From IMG/VR virus record IMGVR_UViG_3300037423_000848, positions 1 to 28,772 of that record: a DNA stretch of 28,772 nt; one strand, written 5' to 3'. The DNA is from a virus (Duplodnaviria; Caudoviricetes). The position numbers and the translations under genes are program-made. Of this stretch, positions 1 through 27,932 are shown piece by piece (position 1 is the stretch's first letter; each line of letters starts with the position of its first letter). The notes under the pieces were generated by a model, which saw only the letters and a list, made by a program, of their open reading frames with translations, made no database searches and was not told the DNA's origin.

Positions 1-511
1 AAGCTTTCTCAAACCAAGACATCATCTGAGAGTGAGTCTTCGCATAGTGGTCCGATCGCTCCTCAAGGAGGATGATCTTTCCGTAGGCTCTCTGCAGCTC
101 ATCTTTGAGAGTTAGAACTCTTCCAAATTTTTCATCAAAGCTGAGTTGAGTGCCATGGACTGATTTGGATAGTTCCTCCATGCTCCGCTCAACGAGCTCA
201 AGTTGAAGCTTCAGGGTATCCGCTCTTTTGATGAGATCTTCTTTGAGGTTCATCATGCGTTTTTGAACGCCGATCATTTCGAGGGAGTGCTTTGAGAGGT
301 CCCCCCTGATTTCGCTCATGCTCCCAGCCATGGCAATCTGCCACTGGGCCATTTTGTTGCCCACACTATGAACGTCTTTTTTGAAATTCTTCTTCAATAC
401 GAAGAGAACCAAGGTGCTGCACAATTGGATCATGCCGTAGAGGATCAGACCAAAGAGTGCAATGATACCAAGCTTTGGATCCTTAATTAAGAACTCCAGA
501 AACTCGCCCAT
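1..511 (-). CDS. Membrane-anchored coiled-coil protein, truncated at window edge (holin/i-spanin-like candidate); absent from the ORF track
   Basis: Manual translation from ATG 511 (TGATG overlap with the upstream stop, GGAG upstream): MGEFLEFLIKDPKLGIIALFGLILYGMIQLCSTLVLFVLKKNFKK..., then a heptad-rich helical region. The frame stays open to position 1. Confidence 0.75.
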   Translation of the reverse strand, partial: MGEFLEFLIKDPKLGIIALFGLILYGMIQLCSTLVLFVLKKNFKKDVHSVGNKMAQWQIAMAGSMSEIRGDLSKHSLEMIGVQKRMMNLKEDLIKRADTLKLQLELVERSMEELSKSVHGTQLSFDEKFGRVLTLKDELQRAYGKIILLEERSDHYAKTHSQMMSWFEKA

Positions 512-804
512 CAGATCTTCTCCCGAACTTTGAGAACGAATCCCATGTCGATGAGCTGCTTTCTCATGACTGGATCGCGCAGATCATATGTTTCCTTTTT
601 CATCTCAGACTTCGTGCAGACCCAAAGGAAATGCTCAGTGCAGACTTCGTATTGATATTCAAAGCCTGGGATATCAGGACTTAGCCGGAGCGTCCTGTTT
701 TCCAACGCTGGTACAGAAAGCAGTTGCGAGGACGCGCAGCCTAAATTCCAGGTTATCAAGGACAGCATCGTTACGAAGAGCAGGATCTTTGTTGTATTCA
801 GCAT
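511..804 (-). CDS. Small lipoprotein, o-spanin (Rz1)-like candidate
   Basis: From ATG 804: MLNTTKILLFVTMLSLITWNLG-C-ASS, a signal peptide with lipobox-like LGC. It has an extra Cys pair (VCTEHFLWVC) and overlaps the upstream ORF in another frame. Confidence 0.6.
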   Translation of the reverse strand: MLNTTKILLFVTMLSLITWNLGCASSQLLSVPALENRTLRLSPDIPGFEYQYEVCTEHFLWVCTKSEMKKETYDLRDPVMRKQLIDMGFVLKVREKI

Positions 805-910
805 ACCAAGCCTTCTGGATCGACATCTTTTCATCGATGTATTTTGTCTTCTCTTCGTTGTTCCAAAGCTCCAACGCAGTAGAGAGCGTGTTGAGAAGAA
901 CAGTAAACAT
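674..910 (-). CDS. Small helical protein (78 aa), possible Rz-like partner of the overlapping lipoprotein
   Basis: ATG 910 lies just after the stop of 913..1119, with GAGG upstream. N-terminus MFTVLLNTLSTALELW is amphipathic; 131-nt overlap with the lipoprotein gene. Confidence 0.5.
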   Translation of the reverse strand: MFTVLLNTLSTALELWNNEEKTKYIDEKMSIQKAWYAEYNKDPALRNDAVLDNLEFRLRVLATAFCTSVGKQDAPAKS

Positions 911-1421: not shown

Positions 1422-3356
1422 TCAGCGCGGCCCCCAGCAATGGGCGTGAACGGCGGTATCAGCGGCCGCTCCCCCAGAAGTGAAGGTTTTGATTACAAGA
1501 GCAGATGCTGAAGATGCCGACCTGGATGGCTGGCATTGCGCTCCGATCGACTGATCACCATCGATTGAACAAGTGCAGCTCCCAACCGATGAATAAGCGG
1601 TGCCGAGGTTGATTGAGTAAACTCCGGTCCCAGTTCGAGTGACATTGGTGACGTCCCCTGTGCTGTTTGTTGAGATTGTGCAAGGGGATGCAGTGCAGCC
1701 GCTGGTCAAGCCAGTGTTTGCACCGAAGGACACTTCAGTATCTCTGAGAATGCCGCTTCCAAGTTGAACAACTGAGCCCGTGAGATAAGGCGCGGGCATT
1801 GGGGCGTCGAGCTCAACTATGGACCATTCGATGGAGCTTCGTGCAACGGATGAAGCTTGAATGCCGATGGCGCCGCTGGTTGATGCTCCTTGAAGCTTCA
1901 GACTTACCGACGACGTTGACGTAGCATTATAGATTCCGCACAAAGGTTGGGTCTGATATGTCGTCGTACCGTCTGAGGCGATACGTGTTCCTGCTTCCGC
2001 AATCGTCGTAGTGCCATCCGTGAGTCGAATGTTCAGAACTGCGTAATTTACGGCGCTATAAACTTGCGGATAAGCACAAACGAAATAGCGTCCTGCTCGC
2101 GGAGGAGTAAATGTAACTCCTGGAAGAACACCAGAGACAGCCGTGACCGTGCCGAAATTTCGATTGGTACTCTCAACCAAGTTGCAGGTAGCATCTGCAG
2201 TAAAGTCACCAATCGCCGTACTAGTTCTAGTCCAGTTGCAGGTAGTGTCATTATACCCACTCCAGCTCGCAGGAGTTTGGTCGGCTCTGTAGCCAGTTTG
2301 GGATTGAGTTGGAAAATACTCAACTTGAAAGCCTGCACTTCCTCTAGTGTCCGTACCAGCCAAGGTGATTGCTGCGGAAACAGATCCCCACTTGCACTGG
2401 ACTTTCCACGTCCTGCTTCCGGCTTGTGTGTATGTCCATTTTCCAGTCAACGTCAAAGGCGCTGCCGTTGATGTGTTGGTATCAAATCCTTGCTCAACGA
2501 GTGTATTTCCTAAGTCGTCCACAATCCGACAAGTTGGAGAGCTATCCGCTGATTGATCAACTCGTGAGGTCCAAGTAACTTTGTAACTACCAGGCTGAGC
2601 GTTAAGATAAGTTGCCTGTGGTACCTTGCCCGGAGAAGTGAGCGGACTGCCATTCGATATGGTAGCGGTCGCGCATGACGCATTAGATGCAAAGTCCGCT
2701 GCATAAGTGTTTTGCGTGATCGCCCACGTACATCCTGCTGTGCCGGCAAAGACGAGAGAACCGATATCTTGCGCCTGACTCACCTGACCGAGATTCGTGG
2801 CAAATCCCACGTATCCCTTATCGATGGAGCCAATAGTTGCTCCCGACAAAAAGCCCGCTGTCGAATAGAGCGCAACGCCAACGTTTCCGGAAGATGGGAA
2901 GATAAAGTTTGTCGAAACCTTAGCCCAATTGCCGGTACCAGGAACGCTTACGCACTGATTTAAAAGAGTCGTGCCTTGAACGCGTGGGCAGACCTGAAGC
3001 GTCGAAGCCGTCGTATTTACGTAAAGACTTGCTTCGCCGTTATTAGGACTCAGAGACGATCCAGGAGTCCAGTCTTGATACCAGAGAACCTGAGCGGATC
3101 CGAACGTTGCAGAAGCACTGAGAGTGAGTGACTGCTTCCCGTCTACATAGCTTGAAGTGTTTACTGCAGACGAAACATTTGAGCCTGCGGTCCATCCAGT
3201 TGCAACCGTTGCCGCTTCAAAGCTTGCGTTGACGAGCCCGTTGCCCAAACCCTCGGAAACATCACCTTTAACAATGGTCGCCTTCGAGGCAAAGGCCGGG
3301 CTGCATAAATATGCAATCAGTGCATAAATTTGGACGATAGTGATTAGCTTTTTCAT
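1422..3356 (-). CDS. Multi-domain tail fibre/adhesin-like protein with predicted Sec signal peptide
   Basis: Signal MKKLITIVQIYALIAYLCSPAFA|S. It has a CBM-like N-domain (LVNASFE...GWT), two internally similar beta domains and a C-terminal fibre-tip motif (VTRTGTGVYSINL). S/T/G-rich; SD AGGAG. Confidence 0.8.
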   Translation of the reverse strand: MKKLITIVQIYALIAYLCSPAFASKATIVKGDVSEGLGNGLVNASFEAATVATGWTAGSNVSSAVNTSSYVDGKQSLTLSASATFGSAQVLWYQDWTPGSSLSPNNGEASLYVNTTASTLQVCPRVQGTTLLNQCVSVPGTGNWAKVSTNFIFPSSGNVGVALYSTAGFLSGATIGSIDKGYVGFATNLGQVSQAQDIGSLVFAGTAGCTWAITQNTYAADFASNASCATATISNGSPLTSPGKVPQATYLNAQPGSYKVTWTSRVDQSADSSPTCRIVDDLGNTLVEQGFDTNTSTAAPLTLTGKWTYTQAGSRTWKVQCKWGSVSAAITLAGTDTRGSAGFQVEYFPTQSQTGYRADQTPASWSGYNDTTCNWTRTSTAIGDFTADATCNLVESTNRNFGTVTAVSGVLPGVTFTPPRAGRYFVCAYPQVYSAVNYAVLNIRLTDGTTTIAEAGTRIASDGTTTYQTQPLCGIYNATSTSSVSLKLQGASTSGAIGIQASSVARSSIEWSIVELDAPMPAPYLTGSVVQLGSGILRDTEVSFGANTGLTSGCTASPCTISTNSTGDVTNVTRTGTGVYSINLGTAYSSVGSCTCSIDGDQSIGAQCQPSRSASSASALVIKTFTSGGAAADTAVHAHCWGPR

Positions 3357-4994
3357 TTAAATTCTCCTGAAGAGTTCGTTCCAAAGAGTGCCGTCCCAGA
3401 TCAGAGCAAGAACACTGTGGTTATAGAGAGTGATCGCGCCATTGAGCGAAAGACCACTGCCATCGGAAAGAGTGAGCGTATTTGTATCGCTCGTGCCGAT
3501 GACATAAATGATCTGGCCGACGACGGTACCGGCGCTAATTTGCGATGTAGCCGTAACCGTGACCGCGCCACCTGATCCTTGAACAAACTGCGTTTGAAAT
3601 GGAATCGCAGCCGTTGAAGTGATCCCTCCTGCTGCCGTGATTGCTTGAGGTGAACCAGTTGAACCGCTGATCGTGTGTACTTGCGCAACAGAGGTATTTC
3701 CGGAGAGATTTGAAAACGCAGGTTGCGAACAGTTGGCATTACCGCTTGCTGCAACACCTGTTGACCAGTTATTCGCTCCGCACTGAGTGGGCGTACCAGC
3801 CAATGCGGTGGCCGTTGCTGCGTTACCAGTCGTGTTCTGATTGAGTGTAGGGATATCAGAAGCAGAAATAGCAGACCAAACCGGAGGAGCACTAACGGAC
3901 CCAGTTCCAGTTTGAGAAAGAAACATTTTGGTGCTCGAAGTATTGCCTGCGAGGCGCGTTGGAGCTGGCGTCGAATTCTCGTAAATGATGTCTCCAAGAG
4001 TTGTCATTGGATTGGAGAATCCGCCAGCAGGCGCCGCCCAAGTTCCGTCAGCACGAAGGAAATTCGACGTCCCACCTCCAGAGCCTGGAACCATACCTGG
4101 ATTTGCAGATGTGAATGGCTGGAAGTAAATACTCGAGCCAGAAATTACAGCACCATCTGAAGACGACGTCTGGCTTCCATATGTGCCAACCGTACTTACT
4201 CCGCCGCCGCCGGTCCCGCACGCGGCGCCAGCATCAATGAAGTTTCCGCTCGCGTCGATTTTTACGCAGTTTCCGCTCGTAAGTGAGCCGGTCGTCGTTG
4301 CCAGAGTCGTCGTATTTCCAGAGAACGTAACCCCAGACAAATCAGAAAGCGCAGGTTGAGTACACGCTGGAACTCCGCTTGTGTTGATCTGACTTAACCA
4401 CTGGTGAGTACTGCAAGTCAGAGATTGCACACCGCCCTTAGAGCTTAAGCTTGGATTCGGAAGATCCGCACCAACAAGCGCTCGAAACGTAGGAGAACCA
4501 GCCGATCCGTTGGGCGACGCGAAGACTTGGTTTGCCGATTGGCTAACGAGCGAAGCGGATAAGGTTCCAGAAATAGTAACAGGAGATCCGCTAACTGAGA
4601 AAATGGAAGGAAGCGAAAGTCCAACGCTAGTTACTGTGCCAGATCCTCCACCTCCGCCGCCGCTGCACGCTTGCCATGCTCCATTGCCAGCAGAATCGGT
4701 TGCGGTCCAACAATATCCAGCTGTTGCCCCAGTCGTAATTTTCAAGGACGGAGCCGAGACTGTGCCGGTGAAAACCGGAGATGCCAGTGGAGCGTACTTC
4801 AAGACCATCCCTGGCAAATTAGCCAGATCATCAAGAAGCATTCGCTGCGTCTGATTCCCAGTAGAATTGACGTATGGAAATGAATCGCTTGCTCCTACAG
4901 CCGAAGCTGATCCAAGAGGCAGCTGCGATATCTTCACCTCTGCTTGTGCAGAGATAGACGCAAAAATTAAGAGTAGAGCCAATAATATTTTCAT
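3357..4994 (-). CDS. Tail fibre-like protein with predicted Sec signal peptide
   Basis: Signal MKILLALLLIFASISAQA|EVKISQLP. Fibre shaft motifs: TVTSVGLSLPSIFSVSGSPVT, PTFRALVGADLP, FLRADGTWAAP, PMTTLGDIIY. Gly linkers; SD GAGGTG. Confidence 0.85.
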   Translation of the reverse strand: MKILLALLLIFASISAQAEVKISQLPLGSASAVGASDSFPYVNSTGNQTQRMLLDDLANLPGMVLKYAPLASPVFTGTVSAPSLKITTGATAGYCWTATDSAGNGAWQACSGGGGGGSGTVTSVGLSLPSIFSVSGSPVTISGTLSASLVSQSANQVFASPNGSAGSPTFRALVGADLPNPSLSSKGGVQSLTCSTHQWLSQINTSGVPACTQPALSDLSGVTFSGNTTTLATTTGSLTSGNCVKIDASGNFIDAGAACGTGGGGVSTVGTYGSQTSSSDGAVISGSSIYFQPFTSANPGMVPGSGGGTSNFLRADGTWAAPAGGFSNPMTTLGDIIYENSTPAPTRLAGNTSSTKMFLSQTGTGSVSAPPVWSAISASDIPTLNQNTTGNAATATALAGTPTQCGANNWSTGVAASGNANCSQPAFSNLSGNTSVAQVHTISGSTGSPQAITAAGGITSTAAIPFQTQFVQGSGGAVTVTATSQISAGTVVGQIIYVIGTSDTNTLTLSDGSGLSLNGAITLYNHSVLALIWDGTLWNELFRRI

Positions 4995-5004
4995 ATCTCA
5001 CCTC

Positions 5005-6378
5005 TCAGCAAGCAAACTTCTGAACGTATTTAGAGATCATCACTTGATTCGTTCCAGAAATAGCAACGGATGCGAAAATCCCCTTTTGAGGACTCCAGAT
5101 AATGCCAGACCAACCGTTAGCAGCCGGAGCCGTGGCTGCGGTCCAAGTGATACCGTCAAACGAGTACATAACTTGACCGCTCTGAGCGACAGCTGCGAAG
5201 GCTCCAAGCTGTGGAGACCAAGCAATTGAGTACCAACTATTGCTGGTTCCAATCACGGTGCGCGTGGTCCAATTTATTCCATCGTAGGAACTCATTCCGG
5301 CACCGTCGTAAGAAAGCGCCACAAGCATCTCAAGCTGCGGGCTCCACGTAACGGTCGACCACTGTTTCACTGCAGCAGCGGTTCTGAGCGTCCATGTAGT
5401 GCCATTAGGAGAAGTCGCAACGCGATTGGTTCCAGAACCTGCCACTGCTACGAACAATCCCAATTCACTACTCCAACAGACAGAGCTCCAGTCAGACCCA
5501 GAACCAGCCGACACGCCGGTCCAGTTGATTCCATCTGACGAGTACATGAATTGATTGGTACCTGCGCCGCCAGTTTTCCCACACGCGACAAACTTTCCGA
5601 GATCTGGTGACCAACAAACCGACCACCAAGCCTCGGCGGATGGAGACGTTCTAACGGTCCAATTGATCCCGTCAGGAGAAGTCATAATGCTTCCGCCGGT
5701 ATCCACGGCGACAAAAAGACCTAGCTCCGGACTCCAAGCGATTCCATTACAGCCTGGACCAGCTCCACCACCGCCAATGGTTCTTGTCGTCCATGTAATA
5801 CCGTCCGGGGATGTCATCACGGCCTTCAAACCATGAGCTCCGGAGACAAAGAGTCCAAGTTCTGGACTCCAAGCGACACTTACCCAAGCATTTGCAGCCG
5901 AAGCACTCTCAGCAACCCATTGACTAACCGCCCGCGTTGCTACAGCAGTGTTCGCTTGAGGATTAAGAGCGCCTGGTTTGAAGGGCTTCCAGTAAGCAAA
6001 ACTCGTCAGAGGGTTATTCAGATTGTTGTCGGCCTTGGAAACGTAAACGTTACCATTTCCATCCTGAGCAATAGATCCAGTGTAATAAGTCGTTCCCGCG
6101 TCCCACTGCGGAATCCCGTCTTGAAAACCTTGAGCAAGTTGATATGTCACCAGGTAAAACAGGGCATTCATGTCCTGAATTGTCGGACTGTTTGCTCCAA
6201 GGATGGCTCCAAACCATCCTGTTAGAAAGTTTGGAAGAAACTGCACAAGACTGGGATTTGCTGTTGCCCCAGAATATGTCTGCGGAGATCCAGCTGCAAG
6301 ACTTCCGAATTGTGCGATTTGGTTGTTACTTGCGTTCGATCCAAAAATCAGCTGAGTGTATCGACTTAGTCTTCCCAT
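5005..6378 (-). CDS. Baseplate-anchored tail fibre/receptor-binding protein with beta-propeller
   Basis: Follows the wedge gene. N-terminal anchor ...QDMNALFYLVTYQLAQGFQDGIPQWDAGTTY, then about 7 repeats of WxSVxWSPELGLFVAV...TSPDGINWT (Asp-box/BNR-like). No signal peptide. Confidence 0.85.
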   Translation of the reverse strand: MGRLSRYTQLIFGSNASNNQIAQFGSLAAGSPQTYSGATANPSLVQFLPNFLTGWFGAILGANSPTIQDMNALFYLVTYQLAQGFQDGIPQWDAGTTYYTGSIAQDGNGNVYVSKADNNLNNPLTSFAYWKPFKPGALNPQANTAVATRAVSQWVAESASAANAWVSVAWSPELGLFVSGAHGLKAVMTSPDGITWTTRTIGGGGAGPGCNGIAWSPELGLFVAVDTGGSIMTSPDGINWTVRTSPSAEAWWSVCWSPDLGKFVACGKTGGAGTNQFMYSSDGINWTGVSAGSGSDWSSVCWSSELGLFVAVAGSGTNRVATSPNGTTWTLRTAAAVKQWSTVTWSPQLEMLVALSYDGAGMSSYDGINWTTRTVIGTSNSWYSIAWSPQLGAFAAVAQSGQVMYSFDGITWTAATAPAANGWSGIIWSPQKGIFASVAISGTNQVMISKYVQKFAC

Positions 6379-6382
6379 GGTT

Positions 6383-7129
6383 TCACTCCAGTCCTAGTCC
6401 GATTCCACCTTCGGTGGTCAGAATGTCGCCGGCCTCCGTCGTCAGATCCTGTTGATAGTATTTTCCAACAGCATCCGTGTAACTGAGCCACGGCCAGTTC
6501 ATATGATACGAAATGTAAGAGTTGAACGGAGTCGCATTTGGCTGAATTTGGCCTGTCAGTGAATACAGACTATATTCAGTCATTCCGAAAAAGGCGTTGA
6601 TGGTGGGAACATAAATCACCGATGCAAGCTGCACGCCCATTGGTTTCGGCAAGAAGCCTTCGTTCACAAAAAGCTGAATGAGCTCAAAGCTACCGATCGA
6701 TGAGCTAATTAAATAGCTCATGTGCATGTTCTGATAATCAAATACGAGGATTTGATCTGGAAACGATTGATTTAAAAGCTGAAGAATCGTCGCAAGAGAA
6801 GATCCTGCATTGTTCTTCACGATCGCCATTCGAATCAAAGCGATATAATCGGAATCATCAAGTGTGATGGGTCCGTTAAATCCTGATCCAGATCGGGATG
6901 CTCCGGCGTATTTCCCTAAAATGTCGAGCTGTGCGCCGACAGCAGGATTGGATCCGGTAATATTGAAAGCATCTTGAACGGCGAGAGGGAGTTGCGCATT
7001 TGGATCGGACTGCAATCCCATAAGAACCGGCGTGACAACTGCTTCAACCGTAGCAGCTGACTTCGGCTTACCGAGGTACTGCAGAATCAGCAGACTCACA
7101 TAGTATTTAGCTAGTTCCGCCGTTGTCAT
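6383..7129 (-). CDS. Baseplate wedge protein (DUF2612-like)
   Basis: Motifs YVSLLILQY..KPK, AVGAQLDILGKYAG.SR, LDDSDY..LIR..IVKN, LPKPMGV; synteny after the baseplate J gene. Confidence 0.85.
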   Translation of the reverse strand: MTTAELAKYYVSLLILQYLGKPKSAATVEAVVTPVLMGLQSDPNAQLPLAVQDAFNITGSNPAVGAQLDILGKYAGASRSGSGFNGPITLDDSDYIALIRMAIVKNNAGSSLATILQLLNQSFPDQILVFDYQNMHMSYLISSSIGSFELIQLFVNEGFLPKPMGVQLASVIYVPTINAFFGMTEYSLYSLTGQIQPNATPFNSYISYHMNWPWLSYTDAVGKYYQQDLTTEAGDILTTEGGIGLGLE

Positions 7130-8748
7130 CAGGTCACCGAGATGTTCAATGTTGCCGTGTTACCGTTAGAATCCGTCACCAACAGAACGTCCGTCACTCC
7201 CCCGGTAGATCCGGCCGTATACAATCCAGAGCTTGAATTTACAGACCCTCCACTGTTGTTGGTCTGGAAAGAGTAAGTTAGAGTTCCATATCCACCCAAT
7301 CCCGTAAGCTGAGATGTGAACGTAGGGGCAACGCTCAGATTATTCGCTGTCAGGATCATCGGAAGAATGATGATGTTATTCGGGTCTAGCGTGAACTGCT
7401 TGTTTGCCGAAGATGGCGTCAGGGTATTTGCATACGTTCCGCCTGCCGTTGCACTAAATCCGCCAGTTCCTGGCGTGCCTGATCCGGAAAACGTTACAAG
7501 GGTGTTCGGATCAATCGACTGCACCGCCGTCGCGAGCGCATTGATATTCACCTCTTGGTTAACTCCAGGAACGAAAACAGAAGGAAGCTTCTGTTTAATC
7601 AGATAAATGTTTGGAACAGCTCCACTTGTAAGCGAGGATGCATAAAACGTGATGTAAAGAGGTTGAGAAACAACCTTATCGTAGTTCACTACGAACTGAG
7701 ATCCATCCATCTGTGTAACAGCTACAGGAATGCTTCCATAAGTTCCGCATCCGGCGTTGCGCTTTAAATACATTGCCCAAGCAACCTGATCGAATCTCCA
7801 CCACCAGCTACTGTCTGACACTGGATTTCCAGTGTTGTTGTTTCTCCCCGATGCATAGACGATTCCGCCAGACTGTACGAGGCTGCCAACTTGATACGTC
7901 GTACTAGAGCTGTAAGGACTTACGCTAGAGACAGGATAGGAAGGGCTGTCTTGCACGATCACCCATATGGAGTGACCCGGAATTCCCGCTGGAACTCCAC
8001 CTGTACCTACGCTTGTTACATCGCTATCATTCTCATAAACTTTTACAGACCCGACACCATTGATGTTATTGAGCGAGGCCTCAAGCCCCGAGAGATAGCC
8101 TTGGGATGAAAGAGCTACGGACTGTTGACGGCGAATTTTTAACTCGGAATCAGTCTCTTCATCTACTCCCAGCGTCGTGTAAGTTTGAACGTTGTAGATT
8201 CCGGTGTTAGCTGGACCTCCGCCAATTCCAAGCACGATTGTCACAGGGACCGTGATATCTCCAACCGCAGATTGAATCGCGCCTGGGTTAGCGGCCTGAA
8301 ATAGTAGCACCGTACCGCTAGATCCAGGATTAAAGTTCGGAACACTTGTAATTAGCTGATATTGGTTTCCGGCTCCATCAGCAACGGTATACGGAGGCTC
8401 AATCGTCTGATCCAATCCATAGAGAATCGGGACTGCAGCTGTTGTGAAAATCTTTACTGGCTGGACAGTAAACGTGCCACCTTTTCTCTGAATCCCATTC
8501 ATCGCAACACGTTGATCCAAAATCACTCCAATTGCTTGATCGGGATCAAATGTGCTGTAGATCTGAGCCAGTAAATCTTGGAGGTCTAGAACCGACTGAA
8601 CGAATATATTCATCATCTGCCCGTCAGGAGAGCTAGAAGACAAATCAATATCGTTACCGTAGATGTTCTGAAATGCGGCAGTATACTGAGCTACAAGCTC
8701 ATCGCGAGTCGCAAGAGATAATCCATTTACGCCAATTGAGTTAGGCAT
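7129..8748 (-). CDS. Baseplate J/gp47-family wedge protein with inserted CBM-like and C-terminal Ig-like modules
   Basis: Motifs IYGNDIDL.SSSPDGQM, FDPDQAIG..LD, GVDEETDSELKIRR, VKVYENDSD, IPGHSIWVIV. Confidence 0.9.
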   Translation of the reverse strand: MPNSIGVNGLSLATRDELVAQYTAAFQNIYGNDIDLSSSSPDGQMMNIFVQSVLDLQDLLAQIYSTFDPDQAIGVILDQRVAMNGIQRKGGTFTVQPVKIFTTAAVPILYGLDQTIEPPYTVADGAGNQYQLITSVPNFNPGSSGTVLLFQAANPGAIQSAVGDITVPVTIVLGIGGGPANTGIYNVQTYTTLGVDEETDSELKIRRQQSVALSSQGYLSGLEASLNNINGVGSVKVYENDSDVTSVGTGGVPAGIPGHSIWVIVQDSPSYPVSSVSPYSSSTTYQVGSLVQSGGIVYASGRNNNTGNPVSDSSWWWRFDQVAWAMYLKRNAGCGTYGSIPVAVTQMDGSQFVVNYDKVVSQPLYITFYASSLTSGAVPNIYLIKQKLPSVFVPGVNQEVNINALATAVQSIDPNTLVTFSGSGTPGTGGFSATAGGTYANTLTPSSANKQFTLDPNNIIILPMILTANNLSVAPTFTSQLTGLGGYGTLTYSFQTNNSGGSVNSSSGLYTAGSTGGVTDVLLVTDSNGNTATLNISVT

Positions 8749-8763: not shown

Positions 8764-9144
8764 TTAAGCACCGCCGCCAAGGTCATACTGAAAGGTTTCT
8801 GTAAGAACCGAATAAACAGTCACGACCTGATAACTGACTTGCAGTGATCGGTTTGAATCCAAATTTACGGATAGTTTCTTTACGCCGGTGACAACCTGAT
8901 TTCCGTCTGAATCGGTCGTATTCAAAATGACAGCTGAAACAGCGAGCGAAATGGCTAGTTCATTCTTTCCGCCCAACAGGTTAAACCAGTCGATCCCAGC
9001 GCCGAGATCAAAAAAACAATCTCCAAGGAAGGATGTCACGCGGGATTGAATCGCTTGCGCAACGGCCAGATTCGCGCGCTTATAGTTTGAGCGGCCATGC
9101 CCGAAAGTCCAATCGCCATTTGAATCAAGCGCACGAACAATCAT
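8764..9144 (-). CDS. Baseplate wedge/sheath initiator (gp25/Mu gp46-like)
   Basis: MIVRALDSNGDWTFGHG...AVAQAIQSRV..FLGDCFFD...GIDW; lies between spike and J. Confidence 0.85.
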   Translation of the reverse strand: MIVRALDSNGDWTFGHGRSNYKRANLAVAQAIQSRVTSFLGDCFFDLGAGIDWFNLLGGKNELAISLAVSAVILNTTDSDGNQVVTGVKKLSVNLDSNRSLQVSYQVVTVYSVLTETFQYDLGGGA

Positions 9145-15616: not shown

Positions 15617-16375
15617 TTACGGATTCGTCTTCACCGCGACATCTTGAAAAGTGTCGAAATAGTTAATTGGAGCTTTCTTTTTGACCAAGTACTGCATTTG
15701 AACTGAAATCTTGAATCGGTATGGAATCGCTGCTCCATCAATGCTGGAGAGATTCATGAAATGCGATCCGGGCGGTAAATTACCAATATAGAAAGAGTTA
15801 GCTTGCTGCTGTTGCTGCGAGTAGACGCTGGCAAGAGCCATAAGCACTTCTTCTTTGCGAATAAGTGCTTCCGCACTTCGAGAAATCACATCGATATCAA
15901 TTTGGGACATCATGTTGACCGACTGAACTGCGTCTAGTCCAGCGCCAGATCCATCAAATTGAACCGTATTGCCATACGGCTTCGAAGGCCCTACGGATAC
16001 TGCGATATAAATTCCCGTATCGGTTGGCTGGAAGATCTTTTGATCAAACAAATAGACGCGACCAAGCGGAAGATTCAACTCGTGTTGGAGGATATCGCAA
16101 AGCAGATGCAGCGGATAACCAACCATCACTTTTGCCGTTGCAACGAGTGCAGGCACAGACGAGTCCCTTACCTCAATGGTATCGAACATCTTCTCTGGAT
16201 CACTTGGTACCTCAGAGGGCGACGTGTAGACCCCGGTCGCATTGTCGATGGTGCCACCGGCACCATGAGGCCGCAGTGTATAGGAGTAAGGAGCGGTCCC
16301 GCCCGTCGCGAGAAACGAGACCATCAGACCGGGGCCTACAGCTGTCGCGGATTGGGTTAAGAGTAGCGTGCTCAT
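15617..16375 (-). CDS. Tail terminator/neck protein with N-terminal Ig-like extension
   Basis: Start MSTLLLTQ at 16375 (ATGA overlap). The C-terminal ~165 aa precede the sheath gene and end NYFDTFQDV. Confidence 0.75.
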   Translation of the reverse strand: MSTLLLTQSATAVGPGLMVSFLATGGTAPYSYTLRPHGAGGTIDNATGVYTSPSEVPSDPEKMFDTIEVRDSSVPALVATAKVMVGYPLHLLCDILQHELNLPLGRVYLFDQKIFQPTDTGIYIAVSVGPSKPYGNTVQFDGSGAGLDAVQSVNMMSQIDIDVISRSAEALIRKEEVLMALASVYSQQQQQANSFYIGNLPPGSHFMNLSSIDGAAIPYRFKISVQMQYLVKKKAPINYFDTFQDVAVKTNP

Positions 16376-16770
16376 CTTGGTCCACTCCCCGTCCAGTCTT
16401 GGCAAAGCGTATAGTGCACGTACCCATACAGCGAGTAATCCTTGCGCGACATGATACGTGTCTGCTTGCCCTTCCAGATCACGACCGAATCAACGTCGAG
16501 CGTGAGAACTGGATCCGCAAAAAGCTCAAAGAACGTCCAAGCGCGCTCGCCCTCTGGTCGCAGCATAAGTTGGCGATCAGTAAATGGCATCGCAACGCCT
16601 TGAAAATTGATTGGGTCGCCGGTTTCAACGACTTGGAAGGCTGAAACAGTCTTTGTGACCTGATTGAAGGTCATGGGCTGAAACAAATCGCGCAATGCAC
16701 CAGATACGTCAGGAACCGTGCCGGCCTTATCGAACAGTGGTCTGTCGGCAGCGTTCGCAATGCGGGTCAT
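16372..16770 (-). CDS. Head closure/head-tail adaptor
   Basis: FQGVAMP...QL..RPEGERAW, D.V.WKGK..RIM...DYS.YGY motifs; synteny. Confidence 0.8.
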   Translation of the reverse strand: MTRIANAADRPLFDKAGTVPDVSGALRDLFQPMTFNQVTKTVSAFQVVETGDPINFQGVAMPFTDRQLMLRPEGERAWTFFELFADPVLTLDVDSVVIWKGKQTRIMSRKDYSLYGYVHYTLCQDWTGSGPR

Positions 16771-18864: not shown

Positions 18865-19626
18865 TTAAGCGAACTGGAAGCTCGGTGCAGAGAGCACCAC
18901 GCGAATCAAAGCGCCTGCAGCAGGAGCCTTGTCGAATGCATAACCAACGATGCTTGCGCCGCTGGAGTTGACCTTCGAAGCCACAGCACCTGGGCTCGAA
19001 ACATCGAGCTGAACTTGAGCGCCGCGAGCGATCGCGCCAGTTGCATAGAGATAGATAGCATTGCCAGCGAGCGAGAGCTCACATGGAGAGCCTGCTACGA
19101 ATGCAACAGTCTTCATATCGAAGTTGATGAAACCAAACACTTGGTCGGAGTTGGCGGTACATGCGACAACCTTTGGAATCCCGTCAGCGCTGTCGACGAT
19201 TTTCACAGCTTGACCAGCGTAGAGGTTACCAGATTGGCTTGCGTCGATTTGCGCGGAAATCGTGTTGTTGCACATGCGCAAATCTACGGTTCCAAGAAGC
19301 GTGGATTGAGCGAATTGATTTTGGCCCAAGGTAGACGCATTCGTGGTCGCCACGGCGAGCTGAGCGCTGGTGCCAGCGACAGAGCCAGAGTCGGTTGCGA
19401 TGACCTTGTAATAGTATTGGGTGTTTGGAATGAGGCCAGAATCGTTCAGAGTGAGCGACGTTGCACCTGCGATAATGTTACCTGCACCTGGAGTAAATCC
19501 AGACGTCGTGGAACGATACCATTGGTATGTGTATGGTGCGGTACCGCCAGTTGCTGCAGCACTTGAGAGCTGAGCGGTCGTCGAACCAACTGAAACCTGA
19601 CTTAATGCGCCTGCCGTAGTAGCCAT
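18865..19626 (-). CDS. Capsid decoration/cement protein with N-terminal FN3-like domain
   Basis: N-terminal YTYQWYRST...LNDSGLIPNTQYYYKVIATDS (FN3 signature); C-terminal AGQAVKI...ATGAIARGAQV...GYAFDKA.AAGALIRV cement-like domain. Confidence 0.82.
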   Translation of the reverse strand: MATTAGALSQVSVGSTTAQLSSAAATGGTAPYTYQWYRSTTSGFTPGAGNIIAGATSLTLNDSGLIPNTQYYYKVIATDSGSVAGTSAQLAVATTNASTLGQNQFAQSTLLGTVDLRMCNNTISAQIDASQSGNLYAGQAVKIVDSADGIPKVVACTANSDQVFGFINFDMKTVAFVAGSPCELSLAGNAIYLYATGAIARGAQVQLDVSSPGAVASKVNSSGASIVGYAFDKAPAAGALIRVVLSAPSFQFA

Positions 19627-22687: not shown

Positions 22688-23024
22688 TTGCTTTTAACCT
22701 CTCTTCGTTCTCTTTTGTGATGAAGACTAACTGCGGTCTAAGCATCTGCTCACGATACTGGTTGGCTTGCTCGTTGGTTACGATTGCGGGCAGCTTGTTC
22801 AGGCAACACCTTTTGAACTTCTTTCCGCTCTGACACGGGCACGGGTTGTTCCGTGGTAGATCCCTGAGTGGATTCCAATCGTGCCCCTCCAACGGTTTCC
22901 TCGCTCTTGGCTTGTTCTGGTTTCGATGCTGGAGTTGGCGCTGGTGCTGGAGGAACTTGTCCACGCTGTCTGGCGAGGAAGTGTTCGTTTGCTCGTTTAC
23001 GCTCTTCTTCTCTTCGCTTTGCAT
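22668..23024 (-). CDS. SEC-C zinc-binding motif protein (118 aa), overprinted on the Fis-like HTH gene
   Basis: PRNNPCPCQSGKKFKRCC matches the SEC-C consensus; ATG 23024 has GGAGG 6 nt upstream. Confidence 0.8.
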   Translation of the reverse strand: MQSEEKKSVNEQTNTSSPDSVDKFLQHQRQLQHRNQNKPRARKPLEGHDWNPLRDLPRNNPCPCQSGKKFKRCCLNKLPAIVTNEQANQYREQMLRPQLVFITKENEERLKANASESG

Positions 23025-23199
23025 CCTTGTCCTCCATGTCGTACTTTTCAATTCTTGCGTCCAACGTGCGAATAGCAATTCCAAGCGCTTGCGCCGTCGA
23101 CGTCTTGTTGAACTTGAAATAAGTGAGCGCCTTCAAGATCACTTGCTTTTCGACTTGCTCCAGAGTCACTCCTGGACTCCACATGATATAGTCGTTCAT
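22750..23199 (-). CDS. Fis/NtrC-type HTH (HTH_8) protein with disordered C-terminus
   Basis: TLEQVEKQVILKALTYFKFNKTSTAQALGIAIRTLDARIEKY; ATG 23199 with GGAGG SD and ATGA overlap. Confidence 0.85.
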   Translation of the reverse strand: MNDYIMWSPGVTLEQVEKQVILKALTYFKFNKTSTAQALGIAIRTLDARIEKYDMEDKDAKRREEERKRANEHFLARQRGQVPPAPAPTPASKPEQAKSEETVGGARLESTQGSTTEQPVPVSERKEVQKVLPEQAARNRNQRASQPVS

Positions 23200-23426
23200 T
23201 TTTCTCTCCTCCCATAAAGCGACCATTGCATCGTCCCTGACTCGATAGACAATCCGAGTTCGTCTACCGCTTCAGCTCTCTCTTTTTTCAGTACGCAACC
23301 TTGTGCGTGATGGCGCTTGCATAGCGCCTCGATAGTCGTGTGATTCTTTTTCAGAAAGTCTTGGTATCCAGAGAAGTTCTCCGAAGGACCAACCCAAAGC
23401 ACCGCGAGAAGCGATAGCGTTCCCAT
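23196..23426 (-). CDS. Hypothetical protein (76 aa)
   Basis: TAATG overlap with the portal stop and ATGA overlap with the next gene. Confidence 0.6.
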   Translation of the reverse strand: MGTLSLLAVLWVGPSENFSGYQDFLKKNHTTIEALCKRHHAQGCVLKKERAEAVDELGLSIESGTMQWSLYGRREK

Positions 23427-26311: not shown

Positions 26312-26691
26312 CCCTCATGTCCTTCCCCACCCTTGCGTAACTCGCTGCCATTCGCAGGTAGATTCAAAATGACCTGCGGTCCGCCGTCTGGCCCAGAGTG
26401 CTCAAGCTTCTCCTTCTCGGCCTGACCCAAGTGCTGCTTGCCTAGCCAGATAAGCATGGTCCTATCGCCCTTGAGAGCGAGCTGCCATTGCTGTCGCCTG
26501 AGACTGATTTTGCCGGTATCCGCCTTTTGGGCGTAATACTCCGCAAAACCCATCTTGTACTTCCGCTTTACGGCCCGCTCGATGGTGTCGACCGAGCATT
26601 TGAACCAGGAGGCGATCTCGACCTGCGTGCACTGGATTGCGCAAAGCTTGTCGAAATCCTCCCAGTTGATCTCGATCCTGGGCCTAGCCAT
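26308..26691 (-). CDS. terS: Terminase small subunit
   Basis: N-terminal HTH (CTQVEIASWFKCSVDTIER), SLRR.QW..A..GD.TMLIWLGKQ.LGQ, EHSGPDGGP; directly upstream of TerL. Confidence 0.88.
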   Translation of the reverse strand: MARPRIEINWEDFDKLCAIQCTQVEIASWFKCSVDTIERAVKRKYKMGFAEYYAQKADTGKISLRRQQWQLALKGDRTMLIWLGKQHLGQAEKEKLEHSGPDGGPQVILNLPANGSELRKGGEGHEG

Positions 26692-27889
26692 AGGCTAGCT
26701 CAGCCTTCTGGCCCGTATATTTCTCCCATCGGGCCACGATCACGTCGCAATACCTTGGGTCTAGCTCCATCAGGTTTGCCCTACGTTGCGTTTTCTCGGC
26801 TGCAATGAGGGTTGATCCGCTACCGCCGAATAAATCGAGCACAAGGCCAGCCTCGGGGCAGCTGTTGCCTAAAAAATACTCGATAAGCTCCACTGGCTTC
26901 ATTGTGGGGTGCTCAGCGTTCCGGTTTGGCTTGTCAAAGTTGACCACCGTGCACTGCTTTCGGTCGGAAAACCAATTGTGCGCTGCTCCGGGTGCCCAGC
27001 CATAGAGAATAGGCTCGTGCTTCCAGTGGTAATCCTGGCGACCCATGACGAACGTCTGCTTTACCCAAATGAGGCACTGCTTTAAGAGCCAGCCCGCGTC
27101 CTTCATCGCCTTGCGGAAGTTCACGCCCTCGGAATCAGCGTGCGCCACGTAGATCGCGCAGCCCGGCTTCGTGTGCATGATCATGTTGGAGTAGACGTCA
27201 TAGAGAAACTTATAAAACTGCTCATCGTCCATCGAGTCGTTCTCGATCTTAAGCGCGTCCTTCGTCTTCCCCGTGTAGGACACGTTGTATGGCGGATCCG
27301 TCCAAATGATATCGGCCTTCTCCCCGTCCATGAGCTTTTCGACGTCGGATAGCATTGTGGAGTCGCCGCATAGAAGCTTGTGCCTTCCCAGAATGTAGAG
27401 ATCCCCTGCCTTGGTTCGTGGCGGAACAATCTCGGGTACCTCGTCCTCGTCGCACTGAGGATCAAGCTTCTCCACAGGCTCGAGCACGAAGTTCCTAATT
27501 CCCAACAGGTCCAGATCGAAATCCGGGCCTAGCTCACCCAGGTCTGAGTTGATGCCGGCCAGATCGAGCTCAGCCCAGGATGCGATCGCATTGTCGGCCT
27601 GAACGTCCGCGTACTCCTGCTCCTCGGACTCGTAGTCCTGGAAATTGACCGGGACATCGTTCCAACCGTTAAGGCGGGCGGCTTCAATGCGTCCGTGACC
27701 AGAGGTCACAAACCCAGAACGCTTTGAAACTTTTACAGGGTATCTCCAACCCTGATACTTCAGGATCTCTGCTAACCGCTTGATCTGATCATCGGGATGC
27801 TTGTTGCGGTTCTTGGGATGAGCTTTGAGCTCAGCAGTAGGACGCAGCTCGTCGTAGAGACAGCGAATACTCATTTCAGATTGTTGCAT
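26684..27889 (-). CDS. ParB-N domain/N6-adenine (or N4-cytosine) DNA methyltransferase, beta class
   Basis: ParB-like HPKNRNKH...SGHGR..AA...ADN; motif IV TDPPYNV, HPTMKPVEL, motif I VLDLFGGSGST. Start likely ATG 27889 or 27874 rather than TTG 27931. Confidence 0.93.
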   Translation of the reverse strand: MQQSEMSIRCLYDELRPTAELKAHPKNRNKHPDDQIKRLAEILKYQGWRYPVKVSKRSGFVTSGHGRIEAARLNGWNDVPVNFQDYESEEQEYADVQADNAIASWAELDLAGINSDLGELGPDFDLDLLGIRNFVLEPVEKLDPQCDEDEVPEIVPPRTKAGDLYILGRHKLLCGDSTMLSDVEKLMDGEKADIIWTDPPYNVSYTGKTKDALKIENDSMDDEQFYKFLYDVYSNMIMHTKPGCAIYVAHADSEGVNFRKAMKDAGWLLKQCLIWVKQTFVMGRQDYHWKHEPILYGWAPGAAHNWFSDRKQCTVVNFDKPNRNAEHPTMKPVELIEYFLGNSCPEAGLVLDLFGGSGSTLIAAEKTQRRANLMELDPRYCDVIVARWEKYTGQKAELAYG

Positions 27890-27932
27890 TCCCCCAGCGT
27901 AAAATATGCCGGCAGTTTCTGCAAACGACAAT

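Follow-up and report, generated by a model that had tools for sequence, protein, structure and literature searches.

The established view is that tailed phages finish their particles in the cytoplasm. Fibres anchored by a peptide or loop, and multi-part fibres with the distal receptor-binding part on an adaptor, are known from T4 (gp9/gp10 and gp37-gp38) and from the G7C and CBA120 adaptors; fibre parts of this kind, those of E217 included, are not known to carry a leader and are assembled in the cytoplasm. A receptor-binding virion protein that is exported by Sec and forms its disulfides in the periplasm is known from the filamentous phages (pIII), and inoviruses are assembled at the membrane and extruded. 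Here we analyse the window, i.e. the 28,772 bases that make up the entire IMG/VR record IMGVR_UViG_3300037423_000848. The window covers a small myophage's late region, which is encoded on the minus strand and contains two adjacent genes for proteins of 545 and 644 amino acids (aa), both with a predicted export leader and paired cysteines (Cys). We consider it reasonably probable that the two form, with the baseplate, a baseplate-fibre-head chain that is exported in part, completed at lysis and attached to the virion through a short acidic tag. In the full-text literature searched, supplements and most subscription papers being outside its scope, we found no description of Sec-exported fibres of tailed phages; the available text of PMC8951688 concerns an endolysin signal only, not exported fibres. 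The new element would be the assembly route, modular docking itself being of a known kind. The parts of the proposed chain are:

6383..7129, minus strand: baseplate protein of 248 aa without Cys (Pfam DUF2612, E 7.7e-17), carrier of the tag
6386..6445, minus strand: acidic C-terminal tag, DUF2612 residues 229-248, consensus LxTExGDxLxTExGxxI from an alignment of 28 tags
3357..4994, minus strand: 545-aa Gly/Ser/Thr-rich mosaic fibre with a leader, four local Cys pairs, an N-terminal KISQLP domain and a C-terminal beta-sandwich
4941..4994, minus strand: predicted signal peptidase I (SPase I) leader of the 545-aa protein, residues 1-18, cut between AQA and E; read from the sequence, its character conserved in 12/12
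4809..4940, minus strand: KISQLP domain, residues 19-62, candidate socket for the tag by co-occurrence
3360..3632, minus strand: C-terminal beta-sandwich of the fibre, residues 455-545, where the 644-aa head may be mounted, given the enrichment of leaders in the next gene
1422..3356, minus strand: 644-aa head with a leader, a short N-peptide, a domain like carbohydrate-binding modules (CBM) 4/22, two TNF/C1q-like domains and a small C-terminal beta domain; 16 mature Cys
3288..3356, minus strand: predicted SPase I leader of the 644-aa protein, residues 1-23, cut between AFA and S; read from the sequence and from the family heuristic
3249..3287, minus strand: first mature residues of the head, 24-36, their type varying with which C-terminal domain the upstream gene has
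2787..3251, minus strand: CBM-like domain, about 36-190, Cys123-Cys135
2301..2780, minus strand: first TNF/C1q-like domain, about 193-352, Cys209-228 and Cys276-321, homologue of the Bd2734 tip
1797..2273, minus strand: second TNF/C1q-like domain, about 362-520, Cys373-391 and Cys427-473, paralogue of the first
1425..1760, minus strand: C-terminal beta domain, about 533-644, Cys594-640, with stand-alone leader-bearing homologues in Bdellovibrionota genomes

In the proposed scheme the 545-aa fibre, likely a trimer, and the 644-aa head would constitute an accessory host-recognition appendage of the virion. Sec would export both, and their disulfides would form in the periplasm. The tag on the leaderless DUF2612 protein would be gripped by the KISQLP domain, exposed at the start of the fibre through signal cleavage, while the C-terminal beta-sandwich of the fibre would hold the first mature residues of the lectin-like head; the neighbouring leaderless 457-aa fibre would remain an ordinary anchor fibre. 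If these bindings are real, completion has to wait for lysis because the partners lie on opposite sides of the inner membrane, and the exported parts would join the cytoplasm-built particle once the envelope is breached. As a speculation, lysis inside the prey envelope could confine the parts.

Compared with pIII, the rest of the window's particle is that of a cytoplasmic myovirus. In E217 the fibre attaches to a loop on the triplex subunit whose gene immediately precedes its own (gp45-gp46; available text of PMC10329688), and the window would be alike in that the fibre N-terminus is held by a baseplate wedge element; unlike the parts of E217 or T4, the tag and the KISQLP domain have no significant Pfam or PDB sequence match, nor a PHROG match. 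The MAT fibre Bd2734, whose tip is PDB 8OKW, is an adhesin of the cell surface; prey entry drops slightly when it is deleted, and no ligand is shown for it in the available text (PMC10769870). It resembles our proteins in its Sec leader, in the disulfides of its tip (predicted in ours) and in a homologous TNF-like domain, in which one Cys pair aligns with 209/228. The window proteins differ from it in lacking the MAT N-terminal base domain and in lying in a phage tail operon instead of the chromosome, and in the 644-aa protein the TNF domain is internal, duplicated and without a shaft. The cultured phage phi1422 (NC_019525) is among the closest systems: its gp66 ends in the tag like the DUF2612 protein, gp67 starts with a KISQLP-type domain (E 3e-18) like the 545-aa fibre, and gp68 has a leader, 8 Cys and the first domain of the head family (E 6e-11). 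An annotated sigma-54-type regulator of phi1422 and a Fis-type protein of the window both follow the portal. Unlike the 545-aa fibre, gp67 is leaderless and free of Cys, which would place the boundary of export between fibre and head for phi1422 and at the baseplate for the window. The available text of the phi1422 paper (PMC3391216) mentions neither signal peptides nor virion proteomics.

An initial annotation of the window had placed both genes in the late operon directly after the canonical fibre, behind Shine-Dalgarno (SD) sequences and with signal peptides; both reading frames are indeed there, preceded by SD-like motifs (GAGGT; AGGAG), and the signal peptides bear comparison with relatives. 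Leaders were scored by our own hydrophobicity/charge heuristic and are not SignalP scores. Of the 1,468 clusters related to the 644-aa protein at E 0.001, the best 150 were scored (one of them being the query), and 135 pass, as against 1/141 baseplate-J and 2/133 wedge proteins taken as controls; on visual inspection, truncated sequences and wrongly called starts make up many of the misses. Across these roughly 150 clusters, at less than 50% identity, the leader sequence diverges while its charge, hydrophobic core and small-residue end are kept. For the 545-aa protein 53 of 120 local-match hits pass, and all 12 aligned N-terminal homologues have a divergent hydrophobic leader that ends directly before the conserved domain. 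The predicted cleavage of the 545-aa leader would leave the same N-terminus as leaderless homologues have (these start with M-A-D-V-K). A fibre type of ~350 aa is known in two forms, leader-bearing and leaderless, that are 59-68% identical across ~340 aa, and both forms come after a tagged gene (L097, L099). One version of the heuristic also flagged the start of the DUF2612 protein as signal-like, which we read as a false positive since this start is the conserved N-terminus of the family. Neither leader contains a twin-arginine (RR), and we rejected the two proteins as Tat substrates. The 644-aa protein was likewise rejected as a lipoprotein: its Cys18 sits in AYLC, which is no lipobox, and is not conserved.

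The Cys counts of the initial annotation also stand. The mature 545-aa protein has eight, in four local pairs (95/110, 194/211, 243/259, 405/422), and the 644-aa protein has 17, i.e. C18 within the leader and 16 mature ones, mostly in pairs that co-vary. Within the 150 relatives the latter are gained and lost pairwise, with phi coefficients of 1.0 (123-135), 0.98 (373-391), 0.94 (427-473), 0.88 (276-321), 0.74 (594-640) and 0.61 (209-228), and again of 1.0 for three pairs that the window protein does not have; the Cys count after residue 30 is even in 140/150. Among the hits of the 545-aa protein the median Cys content is 1.09% with a leader vs 0.24% without (53 vs 67 proteins, p 6e-10). Its repeat modules almost never have a single Cys (one case, the aligned copies numbering 105, 19 and 65, with overlap between two of the queries). 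Conserved leaders and pairwise co-variation thus support well the earlier suggestion of export and oxidative folding, and we regard it as very likely that both proteins are exported and disulfide-folded. The argument for export is carried by the leader and not by the cysteines, because disulfide-rich virions exist.

Loci for the tag and the KISQLP domain were collected around baseplate J: 160 were reduced to 124 non-redundant ones, of which 73 extend at least 1.5 kb upstream and at least 4.5 kb downstream. By regular expression 15 of the 73 hold both elements, none the tag only, three the domain only and 55 neither (Fisher p 6e-13, a value that ignores kinship). The tag is visible on inspection in all three domain-only loci, giving 18 with both and 55 with neither, and a tag profile, circular for the positives, has no C-terminal match in the 55 loci without the domain. 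On the tree the trait changes 10 times, shuffles needing at least 12 and on average 16. The tag is carried by the DUF2612 protein, by the small wedge or, in one case, by a neck-region protein, and its gene frequently lies immediately upstream of the KISQLP gene; the 18 domains paired with it comprise 12 with a leader and six without. Short N-domain queries against cultured phages returned phi1422 alone or nothing. A model of the 71-aa KISQLP domain has a predicted local distance difference test (pLDDT) score of 83-91 across the first 40 residues; the nearest named atlas families are T4_gp9_10_N and Mtd_N (0.86), a lead only and without sequence match. The neck region also hosts such elements, with the tag on a neck-region protein at L167:1564-2019 and a KISQLP-type gene at L174:2458-3150 (L174/L178), and the pair may also mount appendages there. 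In three loci (L028:3076-3828, L029:5843-6589, L069:11425-12153) a glycosyltransferase-like gene lies between baseplate J and DUF2612, and in L029 the DUF2612 gene is split around tag and KISQLP gene.

The 545-aa protein lies after the baseplate genes and shares its mosaic shaft with annotated fibres, with local matches to tail fibres of Cy-LDV1, Cr-LKS3 and MW202898. In position and shaft it thus agrees with a canonical myophage fibre, from which it departs by having a leader and no anchor domain; neither it nor the 644-aa protein has a PHROG match, and the known anchor domain sits in the 457-aa neighbour. At residues 481-538 there is a weak match to Pfam Phage_depo_C (E 0.0056, below the cut-off). 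A leader-bearing gene comes next after a C-terminal domain of the 545 type in 11 of the 12 genes with a next gene, the background being 127/609. Head-family genes with an upstream neighbour number 21, of which four were set aside: a near-duplicate, two genes that come after another head gene and one that comes after a 148-aa gene. Across the remaining 17 pairs three types of head N-peptide match three upstream C-terminal clusters (8, 5 and 4) without exception (permutation p 1e-5, uncorrected); the upstream gene is leaderless in eight of them, one perhaps cut by the locus edge. The two closest bodies to the window head (48% and 45%) carry another N-peptide type, so that the N-peptide follows the upstream gene and not the body. 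The tag/KISQLP co-occurrence and this match are, as far as sequences can tell, two new matching codes. Short leaderless anchor fibres ending in a beta-sandwich were also seen (L259:23437-24811, that is phi1422 gp73 and gp75; L031, L069, L097, L099); leader-bearing genes closely follow them, several sharing a start like IPDGSIT, and anchor fibre plus next gene make a possible third matched pair.

Both proteins had initially been called fibre-like, a description that suits the 545-aa mosaic fibre and fails for the 644-aa protein. The model of the latter (pLDDT 88, predicted template-modelling score 0.53) consists of four globular beta domains with no fibre shaft, and by this model it is a lectin-like globular head, not a fibre. 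The CBM-like domain has profile matches to CBM structures (E 2.5e-4 and weaker) and a Foldseek match to CBM22. The two TNF/C1q-like domains are mutually paralogous (E 4.8e-22). The first matches 8OKW by profile (E 3.8e-29) and by single sequence (E 2.6e-6), and its model superposes on it with a template-modelling score of 0.88 by target and a root-mean-square deviation of 1.8; the head may bind glycans. A tblastn search of cultured phages with the 644-aa protein gave no match, phi1422 gp68 being reached by profile only. In the 22 viral loci examined, the visible genes place the head family among structural genes, and the phages concerned differ in tail type as read from gene content; additional scans for further loci found none. 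The atlas clusters of the family are 95-100% viral.

We also searched 301 genomes of the phylum to which the host of a related prophage belongs (see below), scoring at most four candidates per genome. Head-domain matches occur in 22 of them. They comprise eight loci where a domain resembles that of Bd2734, 11 short leader-bearing proteins that have the last domain only, and a small number of multi-domain proteins, part of them encoded next to phage-like genes. The last-domain proteins (L239, L241, L242, L244, L246-L248, L250, L252, L254, L255) are 170-220 aa long and contain Cys, and several of their genes adjoin putative glycosyltransferase, sugar aminotransferase or methyltransferase genes. 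In a tree of TNF domains the eight host tips form a single clade (0.905) within the phage sequences; as backbone support is low and sampling favours phages, no direction of transfer is claimed.

Several observations weigh against the proposed chain. The lineage query was built from tag-bearing phages, and the independent contrasts on well-supported branches number four, all concordant with the curated tags (p = 0.125). Leaderless KISQLP proteins on unrelated contigs (L032, L033/L034) have no tag in 14-20 kb. The third head-peptide type, the window's own, is a catch-all of four dissimilar peptides, and the 17/17 match may in part reflect linkage, adjacent genes being co-inherited. In the 644-aa protein pair 554-559 is weak (phi 0.35) and 596-608 gave no resolved pair. 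The fibre modules can do without the Cys pair, which is missing from 59 of the 67 copies found in leader-bearing proteins, and the association of Cys with leader is weak at module level (one hit for the first module; p 0.32, not significant, for the second; p 0.11 for the third; p 0.013 for the fourth, from an overlapping query); the leaderless modules with a Cys pair stem from two proteins with an internal signal-like stretch. Cys pairs alone prove little, since virions of phage Jabs carry many disulfides with no export reported in the available text (PMC13419713). Finally, head domains are also present in exported host proteins, which suits a role at the cell surface.

The initial annotation had left open whether the two proteins belong to the virion or serve as adhesins or decoys of the cell, and had offered the adhesins of Bdellovibrio as a conceptual parallel. 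This parallel has become closer, through the homologue of the Bd2734 tip and a probable host of that phylum, and it lends substance to the reading in which the exported proteins act on or from the infected cell, as prey adhesins like the MAT fibres, receptor decoys or superinfection blocks, and never on the virion. Sec leaders normally signify an envelope function, and the last head domain stands alone in leader-bearing chromosomal proteins. We nevertheless consider this reading unlikely. A profile of the MAT base, a ~130-aa beta-rich domain after the signal peptide, was built from seven chromosomal proteins with a Bd2734-like tip, and it has no match at E 0.01 in the window proteins or in any phage-locus protein examined; the window proteins also lack the SDxxxK motif of the S74 chaperone. 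Membership of the MAT superfamily was rejected on these grounds, the signal peptide being present while the base domain and an S74/C-terminal tip are absent. Moreover, the N-domain of the fibre tracks a tag on a leaderless baseplate protein, the genes are placed between the baseplate and the probable lysis genes, and the same fibre type exists in a leaderless form that could not reach the surface by Sec. It is the tag/domain pairing and these leaderless twins that favour a virion part.

In a mixed case the 545-aa fibre would dock on the baseplate while the 644-aa head is an independent secreted factor, its peptide match being linkage and nothing else. The movement of the head family between phages with different structural modules, the heterogeneous third peptide class and the adjacency of all paired genes speak for it; the match without any cross-over, peptides that follow the upstream gene even where the body is closest to another type, the leaders after 11/12 of the C-terminal domains and head-family proteins that begin with a KISxLP-like domain of their own (P0253, L160) make it quite unlikely in our view. 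That the leaders are not used for export, the proteins arising from an internal start or as a cytoplasmic form and being oxidised by air after lysis, we judge highly improbable. An in-frame GTG at Val20 of the 545-aa gene would allow it, as would the leaderless twins and the known disulfide-rich virions. Such a GTG near the domain start is found in only three of 17 leader-bearing homologues, the window included; in the other 14 the three codons that precede the domain include no in-frame start, an SD for an internal start is missing from all 17, and a dual start was rejected on this basis. The leader character kept across divergent clusters and a Cys content that tracks the leader also argue against it.

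More broadly, and tentatively, at somewhat less than even confidence, we suggest that in tailed phages of predatory Bdellovibrionota the receptor-binding apparatus is a chain of plugs and sockets with parts on either side of the inner membrane: a portable baseplate tag, exported disulfide-bonded fibres and lectin heads that wait in the periplasm and join at lysis, a movable export boundary, and lectin domains exchanged with the prey adhesins of the predator. If such an exchange took place, the phage may bind the same prey glycans, awaiting its host there. If the chain exists, export, oxidation and addition at lysis would be a second morphogenetic route for tailed phages, and it would account for the phages' use of disulfide-rich lectin domains common to secreted host proteins. 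The domain common to Bd2734 connects receptor-binding parts of phages with prey recognition in predatory bacteria, and the 20-residue tag and 44-residue candidate socket might serve as a display module. As a phage cultured on a laboratory host, with a tag, a leaderless fibre and a leader-bearing head, phi1422 offers a direct test case.

The host of the window phage is likely a member of Bdellovibrionota. The best cultured match of baseplate J is phi1422 (33%, E 1e-69); of the 270 records that match, no other phage covers 80% of the query. What appears to be a prophage of the lineage lies inside a 177-kb contig of Bdellovibrio sp. UBA4095 with putatively cellular genes on its flanks. Most of the other genome matches of the lineage are short contigs from bins of various phyla and were weighted below this integrated prophage; the terminase matches are viruses of Rhizobium and Methanoculleus, uninformative on the host, and none points toward Bdellovibrio.

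The gene order of the window is terminase, portal, Fis-type regulator, head, sheath, tape measure, an E217-like hub, spike, small wedge, baseplate J, DUF2612, the 457-aa fibre, the 545-aa and 644-aa genes and then small genes. Further features near the chain are:

5005..6378, minus strand: leaderless 457-aa canonical fibre with an anchor-type N-terminus and propeller-like repeats (phrog_20878 and phrog_8147; low N-terminal hydrophobicity)
7129..8748, minus strand: baseplate J-like wedge protein, the lineage marker
8764..9144, minus strand: small wedge subunit, here without the tag that many relatives carry

The N-terminus of the 457-aa fibre matches PHROG tail-fibre families (E 7.5e-10), and the protein ends in tryptophan-rich propeller-like repeats instead of a shaft, a nearly identical architecture being seen in L026, L030 and L174. 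At the other end, window positions 2-834 encode a probable lipoprotein (lipobox LGC) followed by a putative transmembrane and coiled-coil protein, spanin-like in character; no endolysin was seen within the window. The 82-aa gene after the head (1123-1371) is common to L035 and L044, which are of a different structural type; L044 also holds one of the two closest homologues of the 644-aa head, and this suggests that the 82-aa gene and the head are a module that phage types sharing one group of hosts have exchanged. The Fis-type protein, with a helix-turn-helix, is encoded at 22750-23226, between the portal and head genes. Of the genes at 18865-19626 and 15617-16405 the first encodes a head decoration-type protein with an Fn3/Ig-like N-domain and Hoc-like PHROG matches; baseplate J and a 262-aa gene appear to have similar Ig-like extensions. 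A putative ParB-like and DNA methyltransferase gene (26684-27931) lies directly upstream of the small terminase.

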